A stretch of 64,000 nt of DNA from Bacteroidales bacterium (GCA_035389045.1 DAOORA010000016.1:1-64000), one strand, 5' to 3'. Shown: positions 11,037 through 46,200, counted from the first letter of the stretch. Made by a program: numbers and translations. The notes: generated by a model from the letters alone, not told the origin.

Positions 11037-11346
11037 GAATTATGTTTTTATAAATATAATAATAAACTTTTTAAATTTTTTCTGTCAGGAAAAAATTATA
11101 TTTCCCCGCACAGCCCGAGCTGTAACTCCTCAAACGTGATTGTAAAGAGTTTCGTGTCCCTGCCCGCCCTGAACGAGGACTGCACAGGCAGGCGGGGAAT
11201 CCGGCCGGATAAAGGAAAACCCATATCATACTTTTTAAATATAAGATATCTCCAACGTATAACAAATCAAACACAGTGATCACCGGAGATCACCAGCAAA
11301 TGATATCAAACGCACATACAGCAGATAAAGGGAAATATTGAAAGGA

Positions 11347-11793: not shown

Positions 11794-11937
11794 AAAAATT
11801 ATTTTTTGGGGTTAATCACACAAATATAACAACAAAAATATGATAAAAAAAATATTTTCGCTTTATTTATTGATTTTTGTAAGAAACCGGTAAAGTTTTA
11901 CTCCGCAGCTTGTGGATAATTTATAGTTTTGCAGAAA

Positions 11938-12495: not shown

Positions 12496-12497
12496 CT

Positions 12498-12944: not shown

Positions 12945-13210
12945 TATTAAACCGTACCACAAAATATCTATACCACCCGATCAACATTCTTTGATTTTGC
13001 ATCCTTACTGACTTTCAGACCTGACTGGCGCCTTTTGTATGCAATAAAAACCCTGCTCTAACAAGAACCAAACATTAAGGCTTGAATATAGATAGACAGC
13101 TTTTTATTCTATGGATTCCTCATCCCGTTAAACCTTTTACTTTTTTACGAAAAATAGAAATTTTTTAAAAAATATATTATCTTTGAGAAGAGAAATCTTA
13201 TAAAAAAATT

Positions 13211-29645: not shown

Positions 29646-31105
29646 TTCTCAACTTGACTGACAAATCAAAACTAATATGGGTTTATGTTATTAGTGCAAT
29701 TTTTATTGCCCTGAACATATTCTTCATCGCCCGGGAGTTTTATTGGTTTTCGCTGGTACCGGTTGCCCTGATCATTCTTCTGCTCTTTTTCTTTGCCCTC
29801 GACAAAGTGATTTATCTGATTGTTTTTTGTACGCCACTGGCCATCAATATCATGAATGTTGACGACAGGATATCCCTGTCACTACCCACAGAACCCTTAC
29901 TGCTCGGCGTGCTTCTGATGTTTTTTATTAAACTGCTTTTTGAACGTACCTATGATTTTAAAGTACTCAAACATCCTGTGACTATTTTAATTCTTATTAA
30001 TTTGTGCTGGATGTTTGTTACATCGCTCACCAGCGAAATGCCCCTGGTGTCCTTCAAGTTCCTGATCGCACGGCTGTGGTTTGTTATCCCCTTTTATTTT
30101 GCTGCCGTCATCCTGTTTAAAAATATTAAAAACATTAAGACTATCAGCTGGCTATATGTTATACCGTTGGCAGCAGTTATCATTTTTTCAACCTATAACC
30201 TGGTTTTATGGGGTTTTGATGAACAGGCAGCCCACTGGGTTATGTCCCCTTTCTTCAATGACCATACCGCCTATGGCGCTGCCATATCTTTTTTTGTACC
30301 TGTTTTTACCGGATTTGTCATCAACAAACAAAACAACCGTACCAACAGACTATATGCCGGTATCTTATTGTTATTTCTTCTCACCGGGCTGTACTGCTCT
30401 TACAGCAGGGCCGCATGGATCAGCGTACTTACTGCATTGGTTGTCGCGATATTGATTTTTTTGAAAATTAAATTCAGATGGGTTTTTTTGATAAGTGCAA
30501 TTCTCCTTTCAGTATTTTTCTATTTCCAGAACGATATTTTATTAAAACTGGAAAAAAACAAACAGGATTCTTCTGCAGATTTCGTAGAACATGTGCAGTC
30601 TATTTCAAATATCTCATCCGATGCTTCCAATCTTGAACGTATAAACCGCTGGCAATCTGCACTTAAAATGTTCAAAGAACGACCGGTATTCGGCTGGGGT
30701 CCCGGAACATACCAGTTTGTTTACGCACCTTTTCAGAGAACAAGGGATAAAACCATCATCAGCACCAATGCCGGCAACAAAGGGACCGCTCACAGCGAAT
30801 ATATTGGTCCGTTATCGGAATCCGGGTTGCCTGGAATGATCAGTATACTTGCCCTGGTAATCGCAATTAGTATTACAGCCATTCGCCTGTATCACAAGAC
30901 AAAAAAACCGGAAATAAAACTTTTGACCCTGGTGTATTTTCTGGGACTTGTCACCTATTTTGTTCATGGAATATTGAACAATTTCTTAGATACCGATAAA
31001 TCATCGGTGCCCTTCTGGGCATTCACAGCTGCTATCGTAGCGCTCGATATTTACCATAGCAAAGAGGAAAAGGATGCGGAGGCTCCGGCTGATCCAAAAC
31101 AATAA
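29555..31105 (+). CDS. O-antigen ligase/polymerase family protein (start probably downstream, about 29654)
   Basis: Motifs SYSRAAW, ERINRW, FGWGPG, AHSEY. Confidence 0.85.
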   Translation: MYFNTFCLITITVDFFNNWWCKKIRKNCSIILNLTDKSKLIWVYVISAIFIALNIFFIAREFYWFSLVPVALIILLLFFFALDKVIYLIVFCTPLAINIMNVDDRISLSLPTEPLLLGVLLMFFIKLLFERTYDFKVLKHPVTILILINLCWMFVTSLTSEMPLVSFKFLIARLWFVIPFYFAAVILFKNIKNIKTISWLYVIPLAAVIIFSTYNLVLWGFDEQAAHWVMSPFFNDHTAYGAAISFFVPVFTGFVINKQNNRTNRLYAGILLLFLLTGLYCSYSRAAWISVLTALVVAILIFLKIKFRWVFLISAILLSVFFYFQNDILLKLEKNKQDSSADFVEHVQSISNISSDASNLERINRWQSALKMFKERPVFGWGPGTYQFVYAPFQRTRDKTIISTNAGNKGTAHSEYIGPLSESGLPGMISILALVIAISITAIRLYHKTKKPEIKLLTLVYFLGLVTYFVHGILNNFLDTDKSSVPFWAFTAAIVALDIYHSKEEKDAEAPADPKQ

Positions 31106-31202
31106 CAACCCCTTATCTGACTTCCTGAACATATAAAATGGCAGCAAAATGACGTAAGCCTGCTCTTTTACAATTTCTATTTAGTGTTTGAGCGAAAACC
31201 CA

Positions 31203-31473
31203 GTGTCTGAATCGAAAAGTTCAGTTTCGAGGCCTGTCTGACTGGCCTGCCAGGCAGGCTTGCGAAGCGACAAAAAGCGGAGTTTACTGGGGTAAATGCG
31301 CCGTGCTGAGTTTATCGAAGCAAGCATTTTTGGAGCAAGCGTAACCCTGCCCGACTGCGGCAGCGATTTTTTATAGGAGATAATCTCACAGAAATATTTT
31401 AATCAGTAACGGGAATTTGTAAGATGATCCTATGCTATAAAATCGCTGTCCGGTCAGGCGGGCTTTCCGACAC
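31203..31473. repeat. MITE-like scaffold carrying nested palindromic inserts
   Basis: Ends GTGTCTGAA / TTCCGACAC. Inserts CCTGTCTGAC..CAGGCAGG, GCCGTGCTGAGTTTATCGAAG and CCTGCCCGAC..GTCAGGCGGG. Confidence 0.55.
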
Positions 31474-31625
31474 AAAGTAATCTGCTGTTGTTAATTTTTT
31501 CTATTTATTATGTTGTCTAAATATGTATAATCTTTCCTGCTTAAATGTCATGTCTATTATTATGATAATATCGTAACAATAAGCAGTTAAATTAGCATTT
31601 AAATATCATAATTGGGTAGCATTTG

Positions 31626-32063
31626 TCACCAATAGATTACTTTTGAATTAGTGATTGAATTAGAGTTCTCATAAAAATCAATTTTGCATTTCCCATTGTT
31701 CCCTTCAAATGTCATGTCCAAATCAATTGAACCTGATTTATTAGAAATGAATTCTTGTTGATCACTGCTATAGTCACTTACACTCCATCCGTTGCCTTCT
31801 GCATAAAACCATGTACTTGATGGTCCAACTCCAGCCTGGCCTGATAAATTTGTCAATATAATCTTTAAATCAGCCTTTTTTCCTAGTTCTGCAGCAAAGG
31901 AATAATCTGTTGAGCTGGTAATTGTATCAGAGTCCTGAAGTGAAAGAATATTTACTCCATAAAATCCAGATGAAGGATACTCGATTTTTTGTTTCTCTTC
32001 TTTATCGCATCCGTATAAAAATGCTGAAGTAATTAAGATAATGTAAAAAGATAGTTGTCTCAT
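31626..32063 (-). CDS. Hypothetical lipoprotein (last gene of the array)
   Basis: Lipobox LYGC. AT-rich. Confidence 0.75.
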   Translation of the reverse strand: MRQLSFYIILITSAFLYGCDKEEKQKIEYPSSGFYGVNILSLQDSDTITSSTDYSFAAELGKKADLKIILTNLSGQAGVGPSSTWFYAEGNGWSVSDYSSDQQEFISNKSGSIDLDMTFEGNNGKCKIDFYENSNSITNSKVIYW

Positions 32064-32106
32064 GATATATTTTTATTGTGATTTACTATTGACTACCTAC
32101 AATTGC

Positions 32107-32250
32107 AGATAACGAGCCCGTCTGGGATCCGCCACGGCGGACGGCGTCGTTTTAAAAGCCGTTTCCTGTCCTAATAACACCGCCGCTTGATAAAAGAACT
32201 GCACTGTCCTAAAACCCCGCTGCCCCTCTGATAGCAAGCCTTTGTAAGCA
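32107..32250 (-). other. attC-like site (degenerate, with palindromic insert)
   Basis: On the minus strand, TGCTTAC lies 4 bp after the upstream stop and the element ends CTCGTTATCT. Confidence 0.55.
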
Positions 32251-32254
32251 ATTG

Positions 32255-32731
32255 TTAATTGTGTTTTTCCACCATATTAATAAGTGTTGTGTCCCAGGAT
32301 TTTTGTTCCGTATATTTCTTATAAGGTTCGACATATTTTTTTGCCATTTCATGCTGCTGATTTAAAAAATAAATGAGGCAAAGATGATAATAAGATTCAC
32401 CATTATTTTTGTCGATGGTCACGCACTTATTATAACATGAAATGGCTAAATCGTTATAAGCTTTTTGTCCGTCGTCTATCGCAGCCATACCTTGATAAGT
32501 CATGCCCAAGTCATTATAATATAAATAAAGTCCATTTGAAATTCTTGCCGTGTCAATTTCTAATAAGTTTTTCAGAGTCGAGTTTACAGTTGATGAGTCA
32601 AATTGTGCACAAGAAAATTTGAGGATTTCTGGTCTTATTTTTTCATAGTCAATGTCATTTTTACATGCGGTCAATAAAACTATGATAAGGATGCAAAAAG
32701 TCGTTGAATATTTTTTATGTAATGATTCCAT
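32255..32731 (-). CDS. TPR-like lipoprotein
   Basis: Lipobox LTAC, with helical YNDLG...A...Y.K and YY.L..IY repeats. Confidence 0.7.
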   Translation of the reverse strand: MESLHKKYSTTFCILIIVLLTACKNDIDYEKIRPEILKFSCAQFDSSTVNSTLKNLLEIDTARISNGLYLYYNDLGMTYQGMAAIDDGQKAYNDLAISCYNKCVTIDKNNGESYYHLCLIYFLNQQHEMAKKYVEPYKKYTEQKSWDTTLINMVEKHN

Positions 32732-32749
32732 TTTTTTATTTAAATAAAT

Positions 32750-32877
32750 GCATAACGGTCGAGGCTATATGCAGTGAGGGATTGCGAGCTGTTTTCCTGT
32801 CTGCAGACACCGAAATTTGAGCGGGGCAGAATGCTTGAATTACTACTGAAATCCTTATTGCATATAGCCTTTAGGGG
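32750..32877 (-). other. attC-like site
   Basis: Arms AGGCTATATGCAGTGAGGGATT / AATCCTTATTGCATATAGCCT. R' GTTATGC, R'' CCCCTAA(A). Confidence 0.75.
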
Positions 32878-32929
32878 TTCGGTGTTTGTTGTGATATCTT
32901 TCAATTTAGTTGTGTCTTTAATTTCGAGT

Positions 32930-33997
32930 TCAGAACTTATTTTTCTTCATATCTTTTTTGTAGTTTTTAATCACTTTCCCAAACTCTTTATCTTTTTTTC
33001 GTCTCTCTTCAATTGTTGATTCAAAATGTGCTTTTTCCCGCTCCATTTTCAGATAGTTTTCAAAGGATTTTTTGTCAATTTCTCCATTTTTAACTGCTTC
33101 AATTACGGAACAACCGACTTCATTTATATGTGTACAATCCTTAAATTTGCAATTTAGAGAAAGACGGATAATTCTGTCATAAGTAGTTTCTAATCCGCTT
33201 GAAGTATCTGCAATTCCGACTTCTCTCATTCCCGGATTGTCAACAAGAATTCCACCACTTTCAAGAATAATTAATTCCCTATGACTTGTTATGTGTCTTC
33301 CTTTATTTGTGCTTTGGCTTATTGAATCCGTTCTCATTAAAGTTTTCCCTGAGAGATTGTTCAATAATGTTGACTTCCCCACTCCTGAAGAACCAAGCAT
33401 ACAATAGGTTTTACCTTTCTCAATATTCATTTTAAGTATACCGTATCCATCCTGAGTTTCGTTACTAATTGCATAAACTACAATGTTTTTTATTCGTTGT
33501 TTAATACTGTCAGAAATTTCAGTAACCTTTTGTTCATTTATTAAATCAGTTTTTGTCAATACAATTATTGGTTTTACTTTAGATGAATAACAAATTGTCA
33601 GGTATCTCTCAAGTCTGTTGATATTGAAGTCTCTGTCAATAGCTTGAATCAGAAATGCATAATCAATATTTGTTGCTATTATTTGTATCTCTCCGAATTG
33701 ACCAACGGCTTGTCTTGTAATCATTGATAGTCGCGGAAGTGTTTGATGGATTACCGAAAATCCAGCATCATACGTTGTCAATGCAACCCAATCGCCAACC
33801 GCAGGGAAATCTATACGGCTTTTTGCTGAAAACCGTAAATTTCCTGTTATTTCGGCTTCATATTCACCGTTTTCGGTTTTTACAATATATCTTTCCTTAT
33901 GTTCCGCAACGACTCTTCCAATCTCAAAGTCAGAAAGGTTATTCTCAACTCTTAATTTTTGGAGTTCGTCATTGTATCCAAAATCTTCTAATTTCAT
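32930..33997 (-). CDS. rsgA: Ribosome small subunit-dependent GTPase RsgA (long paralog type)
   Basis: Motifs AVGDWV, TKTD, GSSGVGKST, GRHIT, DNPG, C.F.DC.H..E.GC. Confidence 0.92.
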   Translation of the reverse strand: MKLEDFGYNDELQKLRVENNLSDFEIGRVVAEHKERYIVKTENGEYEAEITGNLRFSAKSRIDFPAVGDWVALTTYDAGFSVIHQTLPRLSMITRQAVGQFGEIQIIATNIDYAFLIQAIDRDFNINRLERYLTICYSSKVKPIIVLTKTDLINEQKVTEISDSIKQRIKNIVVYAISNETQDGYGILKMNIEKGKTYCMLGSSGVGKSTLLNNLSGKTLMRTDSISQSTNKGRHITSHRELIILESGGILVDNPGMREVGIADTSSGLETTYDRIIRLSLNCKFKDCTHINEVGCSVIEAVKNGEIDKKSFENYLKMEREKAHFESTIEERRKKDKEFGKVIKNYKKDMKKNKF

Positions 33998-34054
33998 AAC
34001 TTCTGCAATGTTTTTCTTTTTTCACACTGACCGCTAAAGGATTGGCTCTTTAAA

Positions 34055-34173
34055 TATTTCAAAATTACAAATTTATTTTATAGAAGCAAATAAGCGGGTG
34101 TAATTTTTCCAGCGGGTGAAAGTCCCTTCCTTAGGCTCTCACTAAAGGCTTAGCCGGTAGGGCAGCCTGCTCG
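34055..34173 (-). promoter_or_regulatory. Repeated promoter module, copy A
   Basis: 34055-34123 matches 36068-36136 (about 62/69) and 34156-34173 equals 36248-36265. Contains a TAATTTTG (-7) box facing rsgA. Confidence 0.6.
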
Positions 34174-34221
34174 TTTATGCGTTTGTGCTACTTAATTGTT
34201 CACCCTATCACAAGCTACCTT

Positions 34222-36000
34222 CTACAGTTTAATCAATTTTAATGGAGGCTGTTCATTATTTTTTAGCCGAATAAAGTACAGCCCATTTGGTAAATCCGCA
34301 ACACTAAGGCTTGTTGCTCCTGATACATCCATTACTTTTGTTAAACATCCGGTTGCGCTATAAATTTGAATTTCTTCCTGTACAGGGTATTTCGCAAATA
34401 TAATAGTAATAGTTTCCGATGCAGGGTTTGGAAATATACTCCAGAATAATTCCTGATCTCTTACCTCAATACCAACAACTCCACAATCATATTGCAGAAC
34501 GTAAGAAGTAGTGTCTAAAGGACAATTAGAGTTGGGGTTAATGACTTTACATTCGTATTTTCCTTCTGTAGATATAAACAATGTGTCTTCATTGGTCATA
34601 AATGATAAAAGCGTATCATTTTTAAACCATAGAATATTTTCTGAACCGGATAAGAAACCGTTTATATGTAATACGGCAAATGGCACAGTATCACCTATGC
34701 AAGGGTCACCCAATGCATCAAAGTAATAACCGGGCCATACAGCACTTTCTGTATATAATTCTGATAATTCAGAACAACCATTAACGGTAGAAATAACGGA
34801 AAATCCCGAAATATTATATTGAAAATAATCTGGTAAATATTGATTGGTTTCAGGTAAAGGAACGCCATAAGCAAACCATTGATAGGAATCTGCTGCTTGT
34901 GTCCAAAGTGTATCATAATTGCACAACCAGGGAAGTGTTGTATAAATGGTTGGTGAATGGCTGCAGAATTGAATAATAGTATCCGCAAGGCTGGTGTGCA
35001 ACCCTTGCAAATCGCAATTTGTTGTCGTTAATGAAACCGTGTATGTTCCGTTCGTTACATAGGAATGAGTTGGATTTGTTGTGGAAGAAGTATTGCCATC
35101 TCCAAAATCCCAAAAATATGTTTGCAGAACGCCTTGGTTCATTGGGCTAAAAATTACTTCATTAATACCAGAACCTATCTGATAGCTAAAGTTAGCTATG
35201 GGTAGTCTCTTAAAATCCCATAATTGTAAACTGTCGAACACTTGTGTTTTTACTGCATTTTTTATAATGGAAGCATCGCTTGCATTTAATCCGAAATTAT
35301 AAGTAATCAATGTGGGGTCTTTTTTAAAAAGGGTTGCATAAAAGCAACATGCAGCAGCATAAGAACCCGCTACTGAAGGGTGACTTTCGTCTGCCTGGTA
35401 CAATTCAATGCTGGGATAATTTTGTCGCAGGTAATTCCACACAACTGAAACAGGAGATACTTCTCCATTAATAAAAGCCGTGAGGTTTAAATACCGGTTC
35501 CTTATGGTCGTGTCCATACCTTGATAAGTACACATTACGGGGAAGGTAGCGCAATTTGATGCATCTCCGTTTTTTCTTCCCCAGGTCATATAGGGCATTG
35601 TTACTGCACATGGATTATATTGTTTTATCAGGTTATTTAAAGCGGAGCCACCACTGTTAAATTGACTGTAAAACGTAATAGGCTCCTGGCTTTGTCCCTG
35701 AATAACTGCATAATCCCAACCACCAGTCATTATTTTAGTTTGACTGGTAACATCAAGGCTATGATCTATTAATTGATATCCTCCGGGAGTATAACTATCA
35801 AAAACCAACGTATCTCCGGCTGACAAGGCAACGTCATGCACAATTTGCGGTAAATTATTAACCCCGGTATAACTGTTCCCAAGGAACAGCACTTTATAAC
35901 TGAGTTGAGCTTTTAATTCATATCCTGAAATACAGAAGAATGAATTAAACAAAACGATAATTAAATGATTTATTTTATTGATGGTTGAATATTTTCGCAT
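34222..36000 (-). CDS. SGNH-like (DUF4886-like) + PKD domain protein with T9SS CTD
   Basis: Motifs FLGNSYT, D.SHPS..GSY, WDFGDG..S...NP.H.Y, IFPNP. Confidence 0.85.
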   Translation of the reverse strand: MRKYSTINKINHLIIVLFNSFFCISGYELKAQLSYKVLFLGNSYTGVNNLPQIVHDVALSAGDTLVFDSYTPGGYQLIDHSLDVTSQTKIMTGGWDYAVIQGQSQEPITFYSQFNSGGSALNNLIKQYNPCAVTMPYMTWGRKNGDASNCATFPVMCTYQGMDTTIRNRYLNLTAFINGEVSPVSVVWNYLRQNYPSIELYQADESHPSVAGSYAAACCFYATLFKKDPTLITYNFGLNASDASIIKNAVKTQVFDSLQLWDFKRLPIANFSYQIGSGINEVIFSPMNQGVLQTYFWDFGDGNTSSTTNPTHSYVTNGTYTVSLTTTNCDLQGLHTSLADTIIQFCSHSPTIYTTLPWLCNYDTLWTQAADSYQWFAYGVPLPETNQYLPDYFQYNISGFSVISTVNGCSELSELYTESAVWPGYYFDALGDPCIGDTVPFAVLHINGFLSGSENILWFKNDTLLSFMTNEDTLFISTEGKYECKVINPNSNCPLDTTSYVLQYDCGVVGIEVRDQELFWSIFPNPASETITIIFAKYPVQEEIQIYSATGCLTKVMDVSGATSLSVADLPNGLYFIRLKNNEQPPLKLIKL

Positions 36001-36067
36001 TTGAAGGTTTCTAAGAATTTATCACGTATATGAATTACCGATTGCGATCCGGCTGCTGCGCTATAAG

Positions 36068-36265
36068 TATTTCAAAATTACGAATTTATTTTATAGAAAC
36101 AAACAATCCGGTGTGATTTTTCCAGAGGGTGAAAGTTATGCCCTTCGACTGTTATAGTTATAGAAGCTCTAAGGCGGGATGCTGATTACGGGGAAATTGC
36201 TCCATTTGCCAGTGGGCGGAAACTGCTGTCTGCTGAAGCGGATTGCTGGTAGGGCAGCCTGCTCG
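36068..36265 (-). promoter_or_regulatory. Repeated promoter module, copy B
   Basis: Same module as copy A. TAATTTTG at 36073-36080 faces the 34222..36000 gene. Confidence 0.6.
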
Positions 36266-36338
36266 ATGATTGGCTGGCATTATTTTATTCTCTTTCCGAT
36301 ATAAAACATATAGCCATAGTACGCTTTGTATTTGTTAT

Positions 36339-36509
36339 GGGCACCTCTAAAAACTTCAAATTTCTTTGTTCGTCTTCGTTCTTCAAATCCTTGCGTCCGG
36401 CAGGCTCAGCACAGGCATATACGCTATGTACACTGCGGTTTTCAGAACTTCGACTGCCTCGAACTTTTTTGTTTCTATAGGCGTCCGATCCAGGTTTTTA
36501 GAGATGCCC
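36339..36509. mobile_element. MITE with 16-bp terminal inverted repeats
   Basis: GGGCACCTCTAAAAAC ... GTTTTTAGAGATGCCC (1 mismatch). Contains a GGCAGGCTCAGCACAGGC REP-like insert. Confidence 0.75.
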
Positions 36510-36664
36510 TTATATAATTCTGCTTCATATCGCTGGTATCGATTGTTACTATAGCCTATCGAATTGGCGGTTGCTCTTCGGTGGCGCTTATACTATTATA
36601 CTTCCTACGAAGAACAAAGGTTTCAATATGCTCGACACTGTCATAAAAAGCACTGTACTGCAAC

Positions 36665-36775
36665 TGACAGCAACCGCCTGATAGACCAAAAAGCCCGATA
36701 AACATTAGGATTTATCGGGCTTTTTGCTCCGCCGCGGCGGAAGGGCTTTTCGGCTATCACTCTATGTGTTTAAAT
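36665..36775 (-). other. attC-like site, paralog of 41046-41162 (degenerate right end)
   Basis: Shares AACACATAGAGTGATAGCCGAAAAGCCC...CAAAAAGCCCGATAAATCCTAATGTTTATCGGGCTTTTTGGTCTAT with 41081-41158. Starts just after the ATPase stop. Confidence 0.6.
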
Positions 36776-36778
36776 TTA

Positions 36779-38011
36779 TCATCCTACTTTTTCTAGCAGC
36801 CATTCAAATACATTTTTATGAATTATTCCTGCTCTGTTTTGAGTAAAAGACTCAGTCGAAAGCAAATATTTCGGATAATTGTCTTTTACTTTTTCTAAGG
36901 GTGCAAATTCACGTTTTTCGGTTTCAGGATTTGAAATCTCCCAAGCAACTTGATAATATTCAATGTCTCCATTACGATTCTTTACAATAAAATCAATTTC
37001 TGCATCTCTAAGTGTTCCTGTCCAAATTTTATATCCTCTCCTTAGAAGTTCAAGATATACTACATTTTCAAGAATATGACCTCTGTTTGATATTCTTTCT
37101 CGTCCGACAAGTACATTCAGCAATCCTAAATCTACGAGATAATATTTTTCTTGAGTGGCAAGTTGTTTTTTCCCTTTTATATCAAAACGATGCACACAAT
37201 AGAAAACAAAACTTTCAACTAAATAAAGTATAAATTTATCTACCGTTGCATGATGAACACTCTGTCCGTCAACTTTTAAAGCTTTTGATATACTACTAGG
37301 TGACATTTGGCTACCGATATTCGATGCGACAAATTTTATAACGTTATTAAATGCTCGTTTATCATTTATTTTATTTCTTTGCATAATATCTTTTTCAATA
37401 ATTGTCGCATATAAAGCTTCAAGATATTCGTAAATTTTATCAAAACCGTCTTCACGTAGTTCAACTCCTTTGGGTAAAGATGTTTCATTTACAAAATCGT
37501 AAAATAATGCGTCATAATTTAGGTATTTATTATTATAATCAATACCTCTAAATTTCAGATATTCAGCAAATGAAAATGGTAAAATAGAAATATCAATATA
37601 TCTACCACTCAGCAAAGTAGCCAATTCACTCGATAAAAGGTTGGCATTTGAACCTGTGATATAAACATCAATATTTTCTGTGGCATAAAGCCCATCAACT
37701 AATTTCTCAAAATCCGGAATATTCTGAATTTCATCAAGAAATATATAGTTTTCTTTTTCTATAACTATTTTTGATTTTATCTCAAAATAGATGTCATCCC
37801 ACTTTTTATTTAGATAATTCTCAGGTAATTCATAATTATATAACTGAGTCTGTTCGGGTTTTACACCATTAGAAATCAAACGATTTTTGAACATCGTTAA
37901 TAGTGTGGATTTTCCTGAACGGCGTAATCCAGTCACTACTTTGATAATGTCTTTATCCTTGTACGATAATAATTTATCTATATATTCTTTTCTTTCTATT
38001 AAATCTTTCAT
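36779..38011 (-). CDS. AAA_14 ATPase with DUF4143 domain
   Basis: Motifs GLRRSGKS, FLDEIQ, TGSN, LSGR, LENVV..EL, EIDF. Has its own TATCTTTG box upstream. Confidence 0.9.
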   Translation of the reverse strand: MKDLIERKEYIDKLLSYKDKDIIKVVTGLRRSGKSTLLTMFKNRLISNGVKPEQTQLYNYELPENYLNKKWDDIYFEIKSKIVIEKENYIFLDEIQNIPDFEKLVDGLYATENIDVYITGSNANLLSSELATLLSGRYIDISILPFSFAEYLKFRGIDYNNKYLNYDALFYDFVNETSLPKGVELREDGFDKIYEYLEALYATIIEKDIMQRNKINDKRAFNNVIKFVASNIGSQMSPSSISKALKVDGQSVHHATVDKFILYLVESFVFYCVHRFDIKGKKQLATQEKYYLVDLGLLNVLVGRERISNRGHILENVVYLELLRRGYKIWTGTLRDAEIDFIVKNRNGDIEYYQVAWEISNPETEKREFAPLEKVKDNYPKYLLSTESFTQNRAGIIHKNVFEWLLEKVG

Positions 38012-38077
38012 AGTACAAAGATAATTAAATTATCAAAACCATCAAAAATTGCAAGTTTTGATAATATATGACACTTT

Positions 38078-38187
38078 GTCGGGTAACTCAGGCTGATTAC
38101 TCCGCCCTTGTCCCCTAAGAACCGTACTTGAACCTTTCAATTCATACGGCTCAGGCTCTCTATAGGCGGATTAAACCACCCGGCAAT
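38078..38187 (-). ncRNA. Group II intron 3' fragment (end of DIV, DV, DVI), copy 1
   Basis: Minus strand reads GAGCCGTATGAATTGAAAGGTTCAAGTACGGTTC (DV, 38119-38152) then TTAGGGGAC...TTACCCGAC. Confidence 0.85.
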
Positions 38188-38320
38188 ATACAAAAAAATT
38201 CAGTGAATACGTCAGCGGTATTTTCTTTTTAAGAAATAAGCAACACCCGCCAAACGTAAAAATCCCGTTCTACATCCGGTTTCTTGAAAAGTTTGGTGTG
38301 GACATAATGCTGTGCCCCGC

Positions 38321-38416
38321 TTGTAACGATCAGGTGCTGCTGCATGGCGGGATATCTTTGATGACACGCTGAATGTCGCAATACAGTCTCCCGCTTGTAG
38401 CAGCACAAAGTTATGC
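38321..38416 (-). other. attC-like site
   Basis: R'' GCATAAC 7 bp after the stop. Arms GTGCTGCTACAAGCGGGA / TCCCGCCATGCAGCAGCAC. R' GTTACAA. Confidence 0.8.
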
Positions 38417-38423
38417 ACTGCGT

Positions 38424-40451
38424 TCATTGTTTTATAAATTTAATCACTTCAATTCTTTTATCGGTTTTAACTTTCACAAAATATATTCCGTTGGCTAAAT
38501 CACCAATATTTACAAGTGTTTTTTTATTATTTACTTTTTGTTTTAAAATTTTCTGTCCGTTTATATTATATATATTTAGCTCACTGTAGCCTAAACTTGA
38601 AGGTTTTTCTATGATTATATAAGAAGAGGATGGATTGGGATAAATAGAAATATCGCCTTTTTCAATTATTTCCTGCATACCTGTAATTAGAGATAATGGA
38701 CGCTTCCAGATGCTACTACCGTGAGTACCGCAATACATTACACTATCTGTTGCAGCCAAACAGATAATACTCTTATTTAATAAGCCGTCATTAAAATCGC
38801 ACCATGTCTCTCCATAATCCGTTGTTGAATAAATACCGCCATATCGCGCGGCTGTATAAATTACATTATTATATCTGACAAAAGTAGCAAAATGCAATCC
38901 CAACAGTCCATTGTCTTTAAGGAGCCATGTTTCGCCATTATCCGATGAAACGTAGACGTGACCTGTACAATATATACCTGTAAATAAATGTTCATCATAT
39001 TTTTTAATGGTGAGCACATTGGTACTGCTTAACCCATTATTTTTTTGCGACCAATTTAAGCAAAAATCATCGGAACGGTAGATTCCATTATCCGTTGCTA
39101 CATAAACAAATGGGCTGTCAATTTCAATGGCTTTAATATTCGTGGTTGTGACAAATTGATCAAAATCCGACAAATTCCATTGCAAGCAATTATCATTGGA
39201 TATGAATATTTTGCCTGAGGAAGTACCTGCAAAAAAAATGTTTCCATAATTTGCCAGTGACAAAATATTAAAATCATACATATTAGTTATGCCATTATTC
39301 AAGGGAATCCAGTTGCCCGAACCGGAACTTTTATAGAATATGCCAGTATTGGTACCTGCATACAAACCTGAATTTTTCATTAAATAACAATTAATATTTG
39401 TAAAGATTCCTGAGGAAATCATTGTCCATGTATTTCCATTATTGTTTGTTAATAAAACATGTCCGTTGATGTCGTTGGCATATATACTGTCTGCAGCTGA
39501 TATGACAGAGTTAATATAGGAAGATTTCAGCCCATTATTTGCCTGATGCCAGATATATGTATTGGTATCGGCTTTATAAACACCGCTTTTAACAGTACCT
39601 AATAATACATCGTTACCAAGAATAATCATGCTGTAGATATCAAAGTCTCCAAGCCCGGTGTTGTGAGAAGTCCATGTTATACCATTGTCAGTTGTCACGC
39701 TGAAACCCTGTGTAGTAGCAACAAAGATTTTTGAACCAATTAATCCAATTGAAGTAACAGGAAGGTTGATGCCGGTTAAAGATGTCCAAATGTTTCCACC
39801 GTCATGTGAAGTGTAAATACCACTATTCAAACCGGCGTATATAGTAGAATCCTTTCCAATAACACAACCTACATTTTGCCCGGCAAATCCGCAGGATGTC
39901 CATAACAAATTATTTGTTTCTGTCTTACATACTCCTCCTCCTATAGTTCCTGCGAATATTGTATTATTTAAAATCCAGAGGGAATAGACATATAGATTTG
40001 TTAAACCAGTTGATGATTCATTCCAGTTTGTTCCGTCATTATAGGAAACAAAGAACCCACCCTCAGTTCCGGCATATATACAAGTGTCATTTGTAGCCAG
40101 GCAGTTTACTTTAAGATTTGACAGACCGGTATTGACAGTAGTCCATGTTATTCCGTAATCCGAAGATCTTAAAATCCCGCCTTCATAGGTTCCTGCAAAC
40201 AAAATATTATTCCTGATTGTTAAAGTTGTGATGTAGGGAAAATTCATATTCCCATTTATGGATTGCCAGTGTTCACCATTATCGGCTGATTTATATACAC
40301 CTCCGCCAAAAGTACCTGCAAAAATCAAAGAGTCATTTGATGCAAAACTGATAAATCTGCCACCTTCAGGACCATTTGTTTGCTGCCATTGGGCATTTGT
40401 ATTGAAAACAATACAAATAATTCCAATTAAAAGAAAAATTTGTTTTTTCAT
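38424..40451 (-). CDS. BNR/Asp-box beta-propeller protein with T9SS CTD
   Basis: Many AGT.GG..S.D.G..W...N.GL repeats and IYPNP. Confidence 0.88.
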   Translation of the reverse strand: MKKQIFLLIGIICIVFNTNAQWQQTNGPEGGRFISFASNDSLIFAGTFGGGVYKSADNGEHWQSINGNMNFPYITTLTIRNNILFAGTYEGGILRSSDYGITWTTVNTGLSNLKVNCLATNDTCIYAGTEGGFFVSYNDGTNWNESSTGLTNLYVYSLWILNNTIFAGTIGGGVCKTETNNLLWTSCGFAGQNVGCVIGKDSTIYAGLNSGIYTSHDGGNIWTSLTGINLPVTSIGLIGSKIFVATTQGFSVTTDNGITWTSHNTGLGDFDIYSMIILGNDVLLGTVKSGVYKADTNTYIWHQANNGLKSSYINSVISAADSIYANDINGHVLLTNNNGNTWTMISSGIFTNINCYLMKNSGLYAGTNTGIFYKSSGSGNWIPLNNGITNMYDFNILSLANYGNIFFAGTSSGKIFISNDNCLQWNLSDFDQFVTTTNIKAIEIDSPFVYVATDNGIYRSDDFCLNWSQKNNGLSSTNVLTIKKYDEHLFTGIYCTGHVYVSSDNGETWLLKDNGLLGLHFATFVRYNNVIYTAARYGGIYSTTDYGETWCDFNDGLLNKSIICLAATDSVMYCGTHGSSIWKRPLSLITGMQEIIEKGDISIYPNPSSSYIIIEKPSSLGYSELNIYNINGQKILKQKVNNKKTLVNIGDLANGIYFVKVKTDKRIEVIKFIKQ

Positions 40452-40495
40452 ATCTCCTTTTATGTAATGGTTAATATTTGCAGTATCATTTTTCT

Positions 40496-40605
40496 GTCGG
40501 GTAACTCAGGCTGATTACTCCGCCCTTGTCCCCTAAGAACCGTACTTGAACCTTTCAATTCATACGGCTCAGGCTCTCTATAGGCGGATTAAACCACCCG
40601 GCAAT
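40496..40605 (-). ncRNA. Group II intron 3' fragment, copy 2
   Basis: Identical to copy 1 at offset 2418. Confidence 0.85.
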
Positions 40606-40655
40606 ATACAAAAAAATTCAGTGAATACGTCAGCGGTATTTTCTTTTTAAGAAAT

Positions 40656-41035
40656 AAGCAACACCCGCCAAACGTAAAAATCCCTTTCTACATCCGGTTT
40701 CTTGAAAAGTTTGGTGTGGACATTATGCTGTGCCCTGCTTGCAAGAAAGCTAAGTTACAGCTTGTCGGGGCGGTGTTCCCCAACATCAGGGGAAACCCGA
40801 AAATTAAACGCTTTGAAGCTTTATGATAATAATGTGCTTTGCTCCTTTGGAGCGAAACGCTATCATATTGCCCTCTCCCGCCAAATTGACCTTAAATCCC
40901 AAAAACATTAATATTTCACCAACAATAAAATCGTGCTCCAATGAAAAAGCAACACATAATTTTAGCAAAACGGAATTTTTATATGTATCTCTGTATAGCC
41001 CAAATCTCAAAAACATCGCTACTTTTTCCCCTAAG
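40656..41035 (+). pseudogene. C-terminal remnant of an IS91-family (Y2) transposase plus downstream element end
   Basis: Frame 40656-40826 reads KQHPPNVKIPFYIRFLEKFGVDIMLCPACKKAKLQLVGAVFPNIRGNPKIKRFEAL*. CPxC...RGxP is typical of these tails. Partial copy at 38238-38326. Confidence 0.55.
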
Positions 41036-41045
41036 GTGAAAGTTC

Positions 41046-41162
41046 TGCTAACGGTGTCGCTGAATCCGCCAGTTGGCGGAATAGACCAAAAAGCCCGATA
41101 AACATTAGGATTTATCGGGCTTTTTGTTTGGGGCTTTTCGGCTATCACTCTATGTGTTATGC
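41046..41162 (-). other. attC-like site
   Basis: R'' GCATAAC, long internal hairpin, R' GTTAGCA. Contains a TCCGCCAGTTGGCGGA insert. Confidence 0.8.
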
Positions 41163-41187
41163 ATTCGTGCTTTCTTTCGTGCCATTT

Positions 41188-42189
41188 CTATTTCAACTTG
41201 ATAACTACTTTCCCTTTTGAACGTCCTGCTTCCACATAAGCTAATGCTTCGTTTGTTTGTTCAAATGAAAACACTCTGTCCATTACAGGTTTTATGACAC
41301 CATCATTTATAAGTGTAGTAATTTCTGTCAACTGATTTCCATTTGCTCTCATAAAAAGAAATGAATAGTTTACTCCAAGTCTTCTTGCATTATTTTTAAT
41401 TCCGAAACTTAACATTTTCATAATTAGTTTCACAAACCAAGGTAAACCAATGTCATTTGCAAAGTCTGTATCCGGTGGACCAGAAATAGAAATAACTTTT
41501 CCATTTGGTTTTAATATTCGTAGCGACTTTTCAAGTGTCTTACCATCCTGACTGTTTAACACCAGATCGTAATCTTTTAGTATAGTTTCAAAATCTTCAT
41601 TTTTATAGTCAATCACAATGTCTGCCCCCAAACTTTTTACTAATTCAATGTTTGTTGAACTTACCGTTGTTGCTACTGTCGCACCCAAATGTTTCGCCAA
41701 CTGAATTGCAAATGTACCTACACCTCCAGAACCTGCCTGAATTAAAATCTTTTGTCCTTTCTTCAGATGTGCCGTTTCTATCAGTGCTTGCCAAGCTGTC
41801 AAACCAACTAATGGAATAGAGGCTGCTTCTTCCATTGATAGATTTTTTGGTTTAAGTGCTGCATCATTCTCATTTATTGAAATGTATTCTGCAAAAGTTC
41901 CTATTCTGTGGTCAGCAGGTCTTGCATAAATTTCATCTCCAACTTTAAATTTGCTAACTTGTGAACCTACTTTTGTTATAACACCTGCAACATCGTGTCC
42001 CAAAGTAAATGGTGTTTTGTATGGCAGAAAGATTTTAAATTCTCCATTTCTGATTTTTGCATCAAGAAGATTTACGCCTGTCGCATAAACTTGAACCAAA
42101 ACATCATTTTCTTTCACAATTGGTTCTGCTGTTTCTGAAAGATGCAATCTCTCTTTTTTACCGTATCGTTTAACTGTAAATGATTTCAT
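41188..42189 (-). CDS. NADP-dependent oxidoreductase (MDR/quinone reductase-like)
   Basis: Motifs GHDVAG, AGSGGVG, GRSKGKVV. True ATG at 42189; the longer ORF call runs through the attC-like site. Confidence 0.9.
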   Translation of the reverse strand: MKSFTVKRYGKKERLHLSETAEPIVKENDVLVQVYATGVNLLDAKIRNGEFKIFLPYKTPFTLGHDVAGVITKVGSQVSKFKVGDEIYARPADHRIGTFAEYISINENDAALKPKNLSMEEAASIPLVGLTAWQALIETAHLKKGQKILIQAGSGGVGTFAIQLAKHLGATVATTVSSTNIELVKSLGADIVIDYKNEDFETILKDYDLVLNSQDGKTLEKSLRILKPNGKVISISGPPDTDFANDIGLPWFVKLIMKMLSFGIKNNARRLGVNYSFLFMRANGNQLTEITTLINDGVIKPVMDRVFSFEQTNEALAYVEAGRSKGKVVIKLK

Positions 42190-42237
42190 ATTTAATTTTT
42201 TAAGTCGGTTTGAAGTTCGTGGTTTCTCCAGCATGAC

Positions 42238-42359
42238 GCATAACGGTCGGGGCTTTCTGCTGTGCGCTTCCCTGCATTGTCTTAAAAGCCGAACTTTTTC
42301 TGTCCACAACTTACATGTCTACGAAGCCAGATGCGCATTGCAGAAAACCCTTAGGCACA
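42238..42359 (-). other. attC-like site
   Basis: R'' TGTGCCTAA(G) 4 bp after the stop. Arms GGGTTTTCTGCAATGCGC / GCGCACAGCAGAAAGCCC. R' GTTATGC. Confidence 0.8.
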
Positions 42360-42363
42360 GGTT

Positions 42364-42897
42364 CTATTTTCTTATCATAACAACTATTTTTTGTCTTTGT
42401 TGCCCGCAGGTTATGTGAAATTTATAGTGTCCACTACTTGGAGGCATTGTTTTACTTACAAAATAAAACTCAAACTCTGTCCGGTCCGCAAGATAATTGT
42501 ATTTTGTTGATGTCCTTGGTAGCTTGGATTTTTCTATTGTGTCTATAGTTGGGATAATGTTAATGCTAATTTTATGTTTGTAATATACAATTTTCTCATT
42601 ACATATTAGCTTGTCAATATAGTCAATTGCCTTTGAAATAGTATCTTTTATTGATTTGTCAATGTGTCCTTTTATCGTAATTCCAATTAAAGGATTTTCG
42701 TTAAATAGATTCAATGCCGTGTCAATATTTACAGTTTTTATGGAGTCAATGTGAACTCTTTTGTCAATTATGCATTTTTTATGAGTTTGAATTTCCTTAG
42801 AGTCATTTCTATGATTTGTCATTGTTGTCTGTTTATAACAACCTGTCAAGGACGCTAAAAATAGAATGGTCAATATTTGTATTGTCGATATTTTCAT
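42364..42897 (-). CDS. Hypothetical lipoprotein (first cassette)
   Basis: Lipobox LTGC. ATG lies 14 bp after G|TTAGGCACA. Confidence 0.75.
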   Translation of the reverse strand: MKISTIQILTILFLASLTGCYKQTTMTNHRNDSKEIQTHKKCIIDKRVHIDSIKTVNIDTALNLFNENPLIGITIKGHIDKSIKDTISKAIDYIDKLICNEKIVYYKHKISINIIPTIDTIEKSKLPRTSTKYNYLADRTEFEFYFVSKTMPPSSGHYKFHITCGQQRQKIVVMIRK

Positions 42898-42900
42898 AAA

Positions 42901-42940
42901 CTTGTGCCTAACAATTGTGATATTACATTCCGTTTATTTT
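42901..42940 (-). other. attI-like simple site at the head of the array
   Basis: Reads AAATAAACGGAATGTAATATCACAATTG|TTAGGCACAAG, with no hairpin upstream. Confidence 0.55.
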
Positions 42941-42945
42941 AGCTT

Positions 42946-43084
42946 TATCTTTGTAATTATTATTATCTCTCTTTGCATTTATAATTATTTGTAGATTAGT
43001 GTTTTATTCATATTAAAGCCGTTTATAATCGTTTATAAACGATTGTATATAAATAAATTTTTTTTAATGATTCGCACAAATATA
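42946..43084. promoter_or_regulatory. Opposed Bacteroidota -7 boxes and an 18-bp palindrome
   Basis: TATCTTTG (+, 42946-42953), TATATTTG (-, 43077-43084, facing the array), AATCGTTTATAAACGATT (43027-43044). Confidence 0.45.
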
Positions 43085-43166
43085 TAAATAAATAAATGAA
43101 AAATAAAGTTTTTAAACATATTTTTGGGGTTGTTGTTCAGCATTTTGTTTCAGCCTTAAAAACATC

Positions 43167-43200
43167 AAACCCCGCCTGACTATACAGCCAGACAGGGTTT
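43167..43200 (-). terminator. Hairpin after the large T9SS gene (terminator and/or CCTG..CAGG repeat member)
   Basis: AAACCCCGCCTGAC..GCCAGACAGGGTTT. Confidence 0.5.
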
Positions 43201-43245: not shown

Positions 43246-46200
43246 CTACCGCTTCAGTATCATCTTCCCGGTGTATACGCCATCGTCGGTGACCATCCGG
43301 TAAAAATACACGCCTGATGAAAGAGATTGCCCGTCAAATTCAGATTTGTACTCCTGATTTTTCCTGGCTTCTCCATCAAACAATGTGGTGATCACTTTAC
43401 CCGAAAGATCATAAACATCAAGTACCACCTTGCTGTCTTCCGGCAGGGTGAACACAATATGGGTCGCGCCGCTGAAGGGGTTCGGATAATTCCGGACCAT
43501 AACATCTGACAAGGGTTCCTCCGCCCCTGCCAATGATTTCAGGCCAGGGCAGGTACCGCAATTCGTATTCAAAGCCCAGTAATTGTTCTTTCCGGATTTT
43601 ATCTGTTTGGCAAAAAACATACCTGCAAACAATCCTGCATCGTCCCGGTTAGGACGTGAATCATCAACAGTCAATGTAAAGTCCAGGTCGGTTCCTTTGG
43701 TGTTGAACAGGCAGACGATACCATTGACCACGTTACTGGCTCTGAAATGCACGTCTTTCTGAACATAAAACCATAAAGGAACATTGTCCGGGTTGATTTT
43801 GACCTTTTTCTCGGTTTCCAGCCCCTCTTTGATCCTGACTTTTGTGCAGGGTGCAAATTTTATGGTGGAACCTTCTTTAAAAACAACCTTCCTGACAATG
43901 TCGATCTCCGTCTGGGTAAAGGTAACAGTTGCTCTCTTGCCAACGATCACTTCTTTATAAGATGATCCCGTCAGGGTGACTTTGGCGTTATCCGGTACAT
44001 GAACCGTGATTGTTCCCGTACTCTGGAGCAGTTCAAAAGCGGGCAGCGCCGCGGTAGCCGGATCATAAATACGGTTGGTTACCGCGCTTGTTCCATCAAC
44101 CGTGATGATGTCGCTTTTGGCAAATGTACCCGGCGCCGTTACAGAGGAATGATCCTTCACTTCAATCTTGCCGCCGACTTTCCTTACTCCTGCGCCACCA
44201 CTGGTTAACGTTGTTGCTTTCATCTGTACAAGATCTTTGGCGAGCATCACATAACCTGCAGCTACGGTGATTGTCTGAACCTGGTCTGGAGCTGCATTGC
44301 CGCAGTAATCTTCCAGATGCCATGTCCGTTCAATGACCGTGGCGCCATAGCACGAGCCCGAAACAATATTATCCACATAAGCAGCCTCGATTCCTGGTGA
44401 ACAGTTGTCGTACTCATCCGTAACATCGCCGGTATTGGCAACCGATACATCGTAAGTATCATAGTCGTCGGCGGTGTACGTGAAATCAGGCGGGGCTGTG
44501 AAAACCGGCGCCATATGATCAAGTACCGTGATGGTCTGTAACTGGTCAACCGCCTGGTTGCCGTTTACATCAACCAGCGACCAGGTACGTAAAATAACGT
44601 AGGAACCCGCACATGGCCCGGCTACAGGCATATCAGCGTAAGTTGCCTGTGGAATCTGGCAATTATCCCATTCATCCGTCACGTCACCGGTATTTCCAAC
44701 CGAGATATCATACTGGCATAATGAATCTGTATAAATGGTGATGTCTGCGGGGGCCGTAAATACAGGGGGAATATTGTCAACAACTGTAACAACAGCAATA
44801 CATTGCGATTCATTATTATGAATGTCTGTTATGGTAAGTGTTACCGGATTGTCCCCGACATTAGTGCAATCAAAGGTATTGGGGAAAACCGTCATACTTT
44901 CTATGCCACAGTTATCCCAGGAATCAAAGTCAACATCAGCGGGGGCTATCGAAGCATTACCCGTCGAATCAAGCTGAACAGTGATATTCCTGCATACCGC
45001 ATTAGGAGGTTCATTGTCATTTACTGTTACTACAAAGCTGCACGTTTCGATTTCGCAGTCGTTTGCCGCTGTGACATATACGGTAGTGGAACCTACCGGA
45101 AAAAAGTAGGGAGAACTGACAGGGTTCATTTCTGCCATGTAGGTCACATCAGGCTCCGGAGTGCCCTCAACGGTAGCAGCAAAACTGACCAGGGCCCCGC
45201 AAACACCCGGGGCATTGTCTTCTTCAATAGCATCAGGACAGGTCAGAACCAAATCGGACTGTACGGTCAGCACAAAAATGGCCTGGTCACCCATCACATC
45301 ACCGGCATCAGGAATACCGTTAACATTTACGTCATAGTAAGGTGTTGCAGTAACCGAGACCGTTTGTGCCATACCGGTATGGTTCTCGAGCATGATGGTC
45401 TGTGATCCGATTAATTGTGCCTGGGCAAAAGGAACATCGGTAACGCCTGTCGGAATACCCGGTAGAGAAGAAACGCATACCCCATGAATCATCAGCGGGC
45501 CGCAGGCGCCGGCCGGAGCGGATAGTAAAACCGGATTACTGCCGGTCAACCACTGCCCGCTGCAGATGGTCAGCTCATATTGCGGGTCTCCGCTAGTTAT
45601 CAGCTGACTGTATCCAAAAGTAGACACGGTACCGGCAACCACAGGCACAGGGCAAACCGTCAGCACAAAGGTTACCGGATCGCCGGCCACATCACCGGCG
45701 TCAAAAATTCCGTTTACATTAACATCATAATAAGGAGTTGCAGTAAACGTAATAGTCTGCAACAAGCCCGTATGGTTTTCCGGTGTGATGGTCTGTGGAC
45801 CGGCTGACTGGGCATAGGCAAATGGAACATCAACAACACCCGAGGGAATGTTGGGCAGGGTTGAGGTACAAACCCCATGCAGCATCAGCGGGCCGCAGAC
45901 GCCGGCCGGGGCGGAAAGTAATACCGGATTACTGCCGGTTAACCACTGTCCGCTACAGATGGTCAGGTTATATTGCGGGTCACCGGTGGTCACCAACTGA
46001 CTGTAACCCAAAGCCGTCAGGGTAGCAGCAACCACAGGAACCGGGCCGACCGTCAGCACAAAGGTAGCCGGATCACCGGCCAGATCGCCGGCATCAAGAA
46101 TTCCGTTCACATTGGCATCATAATAAGGAGTAGCTGTAAAAGTAAGAGTCTGCAATAAGCCGGTATGGTTTTCAGGAGTGATAGTCTGCGGACCGGCTGA

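Follow-up and report, generated by a model that had tools for sequence, protein, structure and literature searches.

The window analysed here is a stretch of 64,000 nucleotides from the draft genome of an uncultured Bacteroidales bacterium (GCA_035389045.1 DAOORA010000016.1:1-64000), and between 31.1 and 43.2 kb it carries what we take, at a probability of about 0.75, to be an integron-like array of gene cassettes of the kind known as rAID-1 (recombinase-associated acquired interbacterial defence clusters), one that has become separated from its recombinase gene. A cassette in such an array would consist of an open reading frame (ORF), sometimes two, and an imperfect hairpin site of 97-140 nt. 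The outer box of this site is the reverse complement of the first 9 nt of its own cassette, and not of the box that now stands beside it. Such own-start pairing would arise because crossover next to G↓TT (the arrow marks the junction) in a circular cassette produces it, and we refer to it below as the own-start rule. The window is contig C16 of the genome G000, a 4.46-Mb draft in 135 contigs that is 96% complete. Other genomes compared carry G numbers, fetched loci carry L numbers, and the 17 other genomes of the genus are called congeners.

A first-pass annotation, made from the sequence of the window alone, had already described cassette starts that are complementary to their own downstream box (R''), and had claimed that in each case R'' pairs better with the cassette's own start than with its present neighbour. 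The four cassettes it named were circularised in silico, anchored pairing was counted, and the folding of reconstituted sites was compared with that of in-array sites and with 200 shuffles of the own start. For cassette 1 the 9-bp complement lies exactly where it had been placed: after the G at 42912, the start at 42911-42903 (minus strand) is the perfect reverse complement of 42359-42351, which abuts the 5' arm of a long hairpin (42350-42250) that is followed by a 5-nt spacer and G 42244 ↓ TT. Its own start pairs at 9/10 anchored positions and the in-array neighbour at 5/10. The reconstituted site folds at -26.0 kcal/mol as against -18.6 in the array, a difference of 7.4 kcal/mol, where shuffled own starts give -19.2 +/- 1.1 (z = -6.3; 0/200 shuffles reach the observed value). 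Cassette 2 agrees with the claim at the level of sequence, with 7 contiguous positions and 8/10 in all paired to its own start versus 4/10 to the neighbour, but not in folding (-26.5 versus -25.5; z = +0.4; 124/200 shuffles as good), because its site B (41052-41170) has lost its long-range stem. The rsgA unit does not support it: with correct anchoring and counted by hand, own start and neighbour pair at 7/10 and 6/10, no G precedes the TT, and the better folding of the joined form (-20.4 versus -15.4) is due to a hairpin local to the joined 3' end and not to R'' pairing. The start that had been given for this unit (34037-) was ruled out as a G↓TT junction, being a TT without a preceding G. 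The 32255 cassette had been said to fit less well, and it does (6/10 own, 4/10 neighbour, no folding gain). Better pairing with the own start thus stands for cassette 1 and, in sequence, for cassette 2, and is not convincing for the rsgA unit or the 32255 cassette; in the shuffling control cassette 1 beats its shuffles, and cassette 2 and the 32255 cassette show no gain over theirs. The window itself, then, holds one clear case (cassette 1) and one partial case (cassette 2).

Insertion of circles by crossover at G↓TT, as the first-pass annotation had proposed, is supported mainly by arrays outside the window. Fragments of the array's intergenic sites are found again, at 75-99% identity, in congeners and on two other contigs of G000, C29 and C93; ten loci carrying such pieces were fetched and their arrays read. 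To be accepted by a first detector, a site needed at least 8 bp of stem, with GTT following 3-9 nt downstream and a box containing AA 0-3 nt upstream; sites with their midpoint in an ORF of at least 110 aa and pairs more than 6 kb apart were dropped, leaving 32 sites and 18 consecutive pairs. These 32 sites of the relatives, like sites A, C and d of the window, are imperfect hairpins with an inverse core that ends in AAC on one side and a GTT... core on the other. The box is the exact reverse complement of the own start over at least 9 nt in 13/18 pairs and over at least 7 nt in 15/18, and matches the neighbour in 1/18, a pair whose two starts are identical. Unrelated starts reach 9 nt in 2/537 comparisons, and 0/20000 permutations reach 13 pairs, the maximum being 6. 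With a second detector that had no condition on the 5' flank (15 arrays, 44 sites, 31 pairs), the rule was followed in 22/31 pairs against a background of 1/938; in the 22 pairs whose own and neighbour starts differ, the box matches the own start in 13 and the neighbour in 0. Folding gives the same direction: of 19 pairs, 14 gain stability in the reconstituted form, 5 are unchanged and none loses any, the mean difference between reconstituted and in-array sites being -3.86 kcal/mol (Wilcoxon p = 0.0008).

Several of these arrays repay a closer look. The genome that contains the window has a second array at G000:C29:42165-49250 (minus strand), which reaches the contig end and in which three cassettes follow the rule and a fourth breaks it. 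In a closed genome of the same family (L162; G018:C1, reverse strand), runs of near-identical cassettes of ~440 nt that contain no ORF, at ~2450-5100 and 8270-10470, lie directly downstream of the recombinase gene, and each of these cassettes obeys the rule. Furthermore, two different species of the genus, G012 and G004, share one cassette in exactly the same letters over ~600 nt, with different neighbours on both sides. The identity begins at a conserved C-G-TTA and spans the ORF, the box and the entire downstream hairpin, which indicates that the hairpin belongs to the ORF upstream of it, with which it would travel, and that exchange took place beside G↓TT. A reverse arrangement, with sites inverted relative to the genes and crossover at the ORF-proximal box, is ruled out by the same pair, which shares the downstream and not the upstream hairpin. 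Of the cassettes compared with other genomes for the same boundaries, as the first-pass annotation had suggested, this one has its boundary at G↓TT, and the G011 homolog of the last ORF of the window (84% DNA identity) shares the ORF alone, with unrelated flanks, so that the last window cassette lends no support to the boundary.

Read in gene direction, sites A, C and d of the window have a common anatomy, consisting of a TAAC box (or TAA plus another base), a long imperfect hairpin within 0-3 nt, an unpaired 5-nt spacer on the 3' side only, and G↓TTA. For the arrays in general we propose the order of a 9-nt outer box ending in TAAC, 1-3 unpaired nt, stem-loop-stem, an unpaired spacer of 5-6 nt, and G↓TTA-NNN-GC. 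Measured on 22 sites, the unpaired spacer is 1-3 nt on the 5' arm, where the detector allowed at most 3 nt yet the stems do begin, and 5-6 nt on the 3' arm (one of 8 nt). Moreover, the bottom strand is the more stable one in 21/22 reconstituted sites, with an average advantage of 2.65 kcal/mol; near-duplicates from one array make up eight of the sites. Since pairing covaries while sequence differs, and since the bottom strand is more stable, the sites may well recombine as folded single strands.

What enzyme would act on such sites? Contig C124 (3968 bp) encodes the genome's best IntI-like match, a XerD/IntI-like tyrosine recombinase of 502 aa (G000:C124:247-1755, L001), and we propose this protein as the enzyme because in relatives the corresponding gene lies directly 5' of such arrays and in the same direction. 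It scores 223.8 with NF040815 ("tyrosine recombinase/integron integrase"; cut-off 220), 219.7 with TIGR02249 (IntI; cut-off 265), 162.7 with PRK15417 (cut-off 435) and 190.9 with XerD (cut-off 329.6). Positions 180-238 of the IntI model are unmatched by it, and it shares 33% identity with the true IntI encoded in G046, another genome of the order, with ~40 IntI residues having no counterpart. Among solved structures its catalytic part is nearest to VchIntIA (2a3v, E = 7.7e-17), followed by archaeal XerA. The genome also has separate Xer-like genes of 312-313 aa (C12, C24), and none of the 52 ORFs in the fetched arrays is a recombinase gene. The end of contig C124 is reached 246 nt past the recombinase stop codon, exactly at ...ACACAAAC G↓TTA, an attI-like motif that also precedes the first cassette of the G012 array. 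A further occurrence of the attI-like motif, at C4:39338, was dismissed as chance, as it falls inside a formate-dehydrogenase-like coding region.

In relatives, arrays start 100-250 nt downstream of, and co-directional with, a recombinase gene of this XerD/IntI-like type (450-500 aa). In G015, G006 and G010 the gene is followed, in its own direction, by two direct repeats, a palindrome, an attI-like G↓TTA and a first cassette that obeys the rule, its box agreeing with its own start at 10/10, 9/9 and 9/9 positions respectively, and at 9/9 in the second cassette of G006 as well. In G004 an array likewise comes after the recombinase gene; the contig of G002 ends at G↓TT like that of G000, and in G012 the gene is cut by the contig end. 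The rule also holds in the recombinase-adjoining arrays L160-L163, from closed and other genomes of the order. Homologs of the recombinase are present in 15/18 genomes of the genus at E <= 1e-30, six besides G000 at 63-90% identity, and in 121/301 genomes of the order at E <= 1e-60, and the family comprises at least 7994 proteins at E <= 1e-40, including some from Cytophagales and Chitinophagales. Counted by eye, ~29 of the 150 homolog matches listed have their 3' end at most 600 nt from where a contig starts, as if assembly failed at the onset of the variable array. The window array would itself begin at a diverged copy of the attI-like site, which is identical to that of G006 at 27/45 positions (ungapped, anchored at the G), a value that only 0.022% of the genome's 4612 composition-matched GTTA sites attain. 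As the gene upstream of this remnant is not a recombinase, the array appears to be orphaned, and with intron fragments and repeats resembling miniature inverted-repeat transposable elements (MITEs) within it, it looks partly decayed as well; if it is served at all, it would be served in trans.

The N-terminal extension of the recombinase, ~230 aa in length, is predicted to contain two copies of a beta-beta-alpha-beta-beta-alpha-beta module (residues 1-70 and 135-204; predicted local distance difference test ~90) with a disordered linker between them. Pfam HARP matches this region below threshold (21.7 bits, cut-off 25; E = 1.5e-4), and a precomputed PF07443 (HARP) assignment is present on 2 of the 120 homologs listed. 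Among the VIA-align matches of the module are the N-domain of T4 UvsW (Z 7.4, root-mean-square deviation 2.1, 62 aligned), the damage-recognition domain (DRD) of archaeal XPB (Z 6.9 and 6.4) and the HARP domain of SMARCAL1 (Z 4.6, root-mean-square deviation 1.8, 49 aligned); eIF1 also reaches Z 7.4, and values below 8 are rated middling. A Foldseek search of the N-terminal model against the PDB returned no match at E <= 0.001, the best being XPB at E = 0.045. Mason et al. are said to have grouped HARP, the XPB DRD and the UvsW N-domain in 2014 as one family of structure-specific DNA binders. The N-terminal modules might take the part of the IntI insertion in reading the folded site with its bulge.

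The likeness to classical integrons is extensive. Shared with them are the ORF with a downstream imperfect hairpin, the TAAC / GTTA boxes, crossover beside G↓TT and the own-start signature, as well as an attI-like site by the recombinase gene, species-typical site families, a more stable bottom strand, empty and duplicated cassettes, and insertions of group II introns and MITEs. In contrast, the recombinase here lacks the IntI-specific insertion, falls below the IntI cut-offs and carries the putatively HARP/XPB-DRD-like N-terminus; its gene is co-directional with the array, whereas the integron integrase gene is divergent; and the sites have a one-sided central spacer, 9-nt boxes and no pattern of extrahelical bases that we could see by eye. 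Some integrons have an intI gene that points the same way as the array. In an integron-like subgroup the IntI insertion is called "not fully conserved" in the text of Smyshlyaev et al. 2021 (PMC8138268), as far as that text was available. The genome G046 provides a classical integron for comparison, at L010 (G046:C35) 10900-13900, where intI is divergent from two cassettes with textbook attC sites that by eye obey the own-start rule, carry a 4-6-nt spacer on each arm and show bulged bases on the 5' side; one of the cassettes encodes, by reading of its sequence, a RelA/SpoT-like protein.

Could the window array then be the remnant of a classical integron, with ordinary attC sites and a canonical integrase that is missing from the drafts or lies on another replicon? 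[quoted passage not shown] The boundary boxes do fit RYYYAAC / GTTRRRY, the own-start rule is itself the classical attC signature, and the more stable bottom strand agrees with the 2.12 kcal/mol given for attC in the available text of Nivina et al. 2016 (PMC5027507). The order moreover has one genome, G046, with a true IntI (325.8 bits) and canonical attC sites. That is, however, the only one among 61 genomes of the order searched, and no IntI above the cut-off was found in this genome or in the 17 congeners (18 genomes of the genus, E <= 1e-40). The same text of Nivina et al. puts the attC spacer at 5-6 nt on each arm, unlike the unequal arms measured here, and the extrahelical bases are not seen. 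In at least five genomes, arrays begin right after the different recombinase gene with its own attI-like site. Taken together, we regard a classical remnant as very unlikely. Somewhat less so, though still unlikely, is a reading that keeps the same cassettes and recombinase but has them recombine as double strands in the manner of Xer, with the palindromes as protein-binding or cruciform sites and the 5-6-nt spacer as the exchanged overlap. The recombinase is equally close to IntI and to XerA and XerD, and has no IntI insertion; its best sequence-family match is NF040815, and solved XerA structures rank just below VchIntIA. A perfect palindrome lies in the attI-like site, and a heteroduplex overlap resolved either way would allow spacers to differ between otherwise identical cassettes. 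Xer enzymes, the archaeal XerA and bacterial XerC/XerD resolvases of chromosome dimers, use a single dif site and lack HARP-like N-terminal modules. Against double-strand recombination, outer boxes and stems show paired covariation, with sequences that vary from one site family to another, which speaks for base pairing and not for a fixed protein-binding sequence; the asymmetry between bottom and top strand is systematic; and by eye the stem arm and the G↓TT box are not mutual inverted repeats, unlike the core arms of Xer sites.

A further explanation would be that the hairpins are non-mobile structural repeats, such as terminators or repetitive extragenic palindromic (REP) elements, flanked by short inverted repeats through chance. 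They do sit downstream of ORFs, some with a terminator-like hairpin and a run of T (site B), their families are dispersed over several contigs and genomes, and a naive scan for a hairpin plus GTT finds 2106 places genome-wide, mostly by chance; such scans, and genome-wide ones with short 3'-end motifs, were too noisy, and none of the 2106 places served as evidence. Chance flanks would nevertheless not be complementary to the cassette's own start in particular, nor would they account for an identical cassette in different contexts, for the tandem ORF-less copies that each obey the rule (L162), or for arrays anchored to a recombinase gene. We consider this explanation barely credible, and the statement of the first-pass annotation that these are not simple terminators or REPs has held up, on account of the specific pairing and of the identical cassette.

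Several observations must be weighed against a rAID-like array built by insertion of circles. Within the window the rule fails for site C, the rsgA unit, the 32255 cassette and the last ORF. In the related arrays it fails in 5/18 pairs of the first test and in 9/22 informative pairs of the second; part of these are missed or decayed sites, which were kept in the counts. The 5-nt 3' spacer of the cassette shared by G012 and G004 differs at two positions (L023 ~2840, L026 ~1890), which would not be expected if crossover were strictly at G↓TT. The window array has no recombinase gene linked to it, and its connection to that of C124 is drawn from relatives. Among the ORFs of the window and the 52 ORFs of the relatives' arrays, Pfam, with immunity-specific profiles not applied, finds no known immunity family, and for the cargo of the window this too counts against it. 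The assignment to rAID is made on architecture, GC (guanine plus cytosine) content and motifs. Finally, insertion from circles is read here from assembled sequence and computed folds, and the single-strand mechanism with its choice of strand from computed folding.

How does the array compare with rAID-1 as published? In the preprint text of Ross et al. 2019 (bioRxiv 10.1101/471110), these clusters of Bacteroidales are called "reminiscent of integrons" and are reported from 226/423 Bacteroidales genomes. They are recognised there by a 5' XerD-like recombinase at least 44% identical to BF9343_RS08045 of B. fragilis, at least two co-directional downstream genes, a GC content that is at most 41% and skewed relative to the genome, repetitive intergenic motifs, and orphan immunity cargo; that preprint text nowhere uses the words hairpin, palindrome, attC, stem or excision. 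A 2025 preprint (PMC12247911), in its accessible part, still defines rAID by the recombinase, co-oriented genes and conserved intergenic motifs. The window array is like rAID-1 in its architecture, in its low GC and in its repetitive intergenic motifs, and unlike it in having no adjacent recombinase gene, a general cargo and an environmental host. At least two co-directional genes do follow the recombinase gene in the relatives' loci L045-L048 and L160-L163; the contig of G000 stops at the attI-like site. The system is best filed not as an IntI integron but as a rAID-type array with a different recombinase. Our literature search, which did not reach the journal version of Ross et al., their figure S4 motifs or the supplements, turned up no description of the site anatomy or of the own-start signature for arrays of this kind. 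The resemblance to integrons is thus already in print, and detail at the level of mechanism was not found in the searchable literature.

The island itself is 12 kb long and lies between a Wzy-type gene (29555-31105, plus strand) and the gene of a 1141-aa protein sorted by the type IX secretion system (T9SS; 43246-46671, minus strand). All of its genes are on the minus strand, and its GC content is 35.6% (31000-43200) compared with 40.9% for the genome and 40.9% and 41.7% for the flanks. According to Pfam, its cargo comprises two proteins of no family (177 and 145 aa), a zinc-type dehydrogenase, T9SS-sorted proteins of 675 and 592 aa, an AAA_14/DUF4143 ATPase, an RsgA-like GTPase and a TPR-like protein; restriction-modification, GNAT and SIR2-like genes are found in the arrays of relatives. 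The genes beside the Wzy gene differ across the 17 congeners, where the island is not conserved, and no arrays adjoin the Wzy homologs in the 11 congeners inspected; the lack of conservation and the low GC content both speak for mobility. Half or more of the region 41000-43200 is present in contigs of three metagenome runs from three studies (activated sludge, anaerobic digester), one of them perhaps the source sample. The features of the array are listed in Table 1.

Table 1. Features of the cassette array in the window, in gene direction (positions counted from the first letter of the window)
Feature	Position	Strand	Description
attI-like remnant, diverged	42913..42957	-	directly upstream of the first G↓TT, without an adjoining recombinase gene; next gene upstream is 43246-46671
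Cassette 1	42244..42911	-	ORF 42364-42897 (177 aa, no Pfam family) and its own recombination site
Site A, attC-like	42244..42359	-	9-nt boundary box, 11-bp stem (42350 / 42250), loop of ~80 nt, one-sided 5-nt spacer (42249-42245), G 42244
Cassette 2	41052..42243	-	zinc-type alcohol dehydrogenase / quinone oxidoreductase-like ORF (41188 to ~42189; Pfam ADH_N, ADH_zinc_N_2) and atypical site B
Site B	41052..41170	-	boundary box 41156-41170, repeated element with inner terminator-like hairpin (41081-41158), G 41052 ↓ TT
Group II intron 3' end (domains V-VI), copy 1	40495..40744	-	250 nt; Rfam RF00029, 58.8 bits at 40496-40572 (gathering score 40)
T9SS ORF, 675 aa	38424-40451	-	upstream of site C
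Site C, attC-like	38327..38420	-	fold -19.5 kcal/mol, stem 38406 / 38334
Group II intron 3' end, copy 2	38077..38326	-	Rfam RF00029, 58.8 bits at 38078-38154; begins immediately past the G↓TT of site C
AAA_14 / DUF4143 ATPase ORF	36779..38011	-	cargo (Pfam)
MITE-like dispersed repeat	36335..36513	-	inserted in the array; ~180 nt; inverted ends of ~16 nt (36508 / 36340)
PKD / T9SS-sorted ORF, 592 aa	34222..36000	-	cargo (Pfam); paired repeat on either side (36058-36289, 34045-34197)
RsgA-like GTPase ORF	32930..33997	-	cargo (Pfam RsgA_GTPase, 161 bits)
Site d, attC-like	32756..32884	-	perfect 11-bp stem (32871 / 32761), 5-nt spacer identical to that of site A, G 32756 ↓ TT
32255 cassette	32113..32755	-	TPR-like ORF of 158 aa (32255-32731); G at 32113
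Last ORF, lipoprotein-like, 145 aa	31626..32063	-	no recognisable site after it
Dispersed repeat, distal island end	31173..31462	-	~290 nt; >20 partial or whole copies on other contigs of the genome, several at contig ends

The sites of the window have relatives in various states of preservation. A copy related to the 3' part of site A is found at 32750-32776 (85% identity), and copies of site d occur at 80-86% identity in five congeners. The repeated element of site B has a second copy at 36681-36770, and the homologous site of G016 (L027) retains an 8-bp stem where the long-range stem of site B has decayed. The box of site C matches no upstream start. At the site of the 32255 cassette, the 5' half (32156-32251) of a common site family has been kept and the 3' arm replaced; many copies of this half are present in congeners. 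The two 3' ends of group II introns are 98% identical, without domains I-IV or an ORF, and stand on the same strand as the cassette genes; being cut at the same point, they are probably duplicates of one truncated insertion. The MITE-like repeat, for which Rfam gave no match at E <= 1 (36335-36513), has ~28 more copies in this genome and many in congeners. The paired repeat stands upstream both of the rsgA-like ORF and of the 592-aa ORF and includes a TAnnTTTG-type motif, which we take to be the Bacteroidetes -7 promoter consensus; the repeat may be a promoter module carried by cassettes. In relatives, DUF805 and DUF805b RNA motifs lie inside cassettes, upstream of small ORFs (L025 361-429, 793-860 and 2431-2463; L045 2356-2424), with scores of 73-80 bits for Rfam RF03081 and 41 bits for RF02914, so that candidates for cis-regulatory RNAs would travel with the cassettes.

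Integrons are the textbook example of gene capture in the form of circles, and surveys report them as nearly absent from Bacteroidetes; the available text of IntegronFinder 2.0 (PMC9024848) lists for this group only In0 elements and one complete integron, in Salinibacter. The own-start signature, the anatomy of the sites, the attI-like site and the architecture of the recombinase turn the likeness between rAID and integrons into a testable mechanism, one that now specifies which bases would be exchanged, which strand is the likely substrate, and which parts of the protein could read the folded site. As a tentative extension, to which we would give somewhat less than even odds, rAID arrays might be the gut-facing tip of a second, IntI-independent lineage of integrons across Bacteroidota, in which two N-terminal HARP/XPB-DRD-like domains, binding DNA by its structure, replace the IntI insertion that reads extrahelical bases and recognise the one-sided bulge of 5-6 nt in folded single-stranded sites, and a co-directional platform stockpiles any accessory gene, immunity genes being only one sort. 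The present findings also suggest that assemblies break systematically at these platforms, and that standard integron finders keyed on the IntI insertion miss a large reservoir of cassettes.

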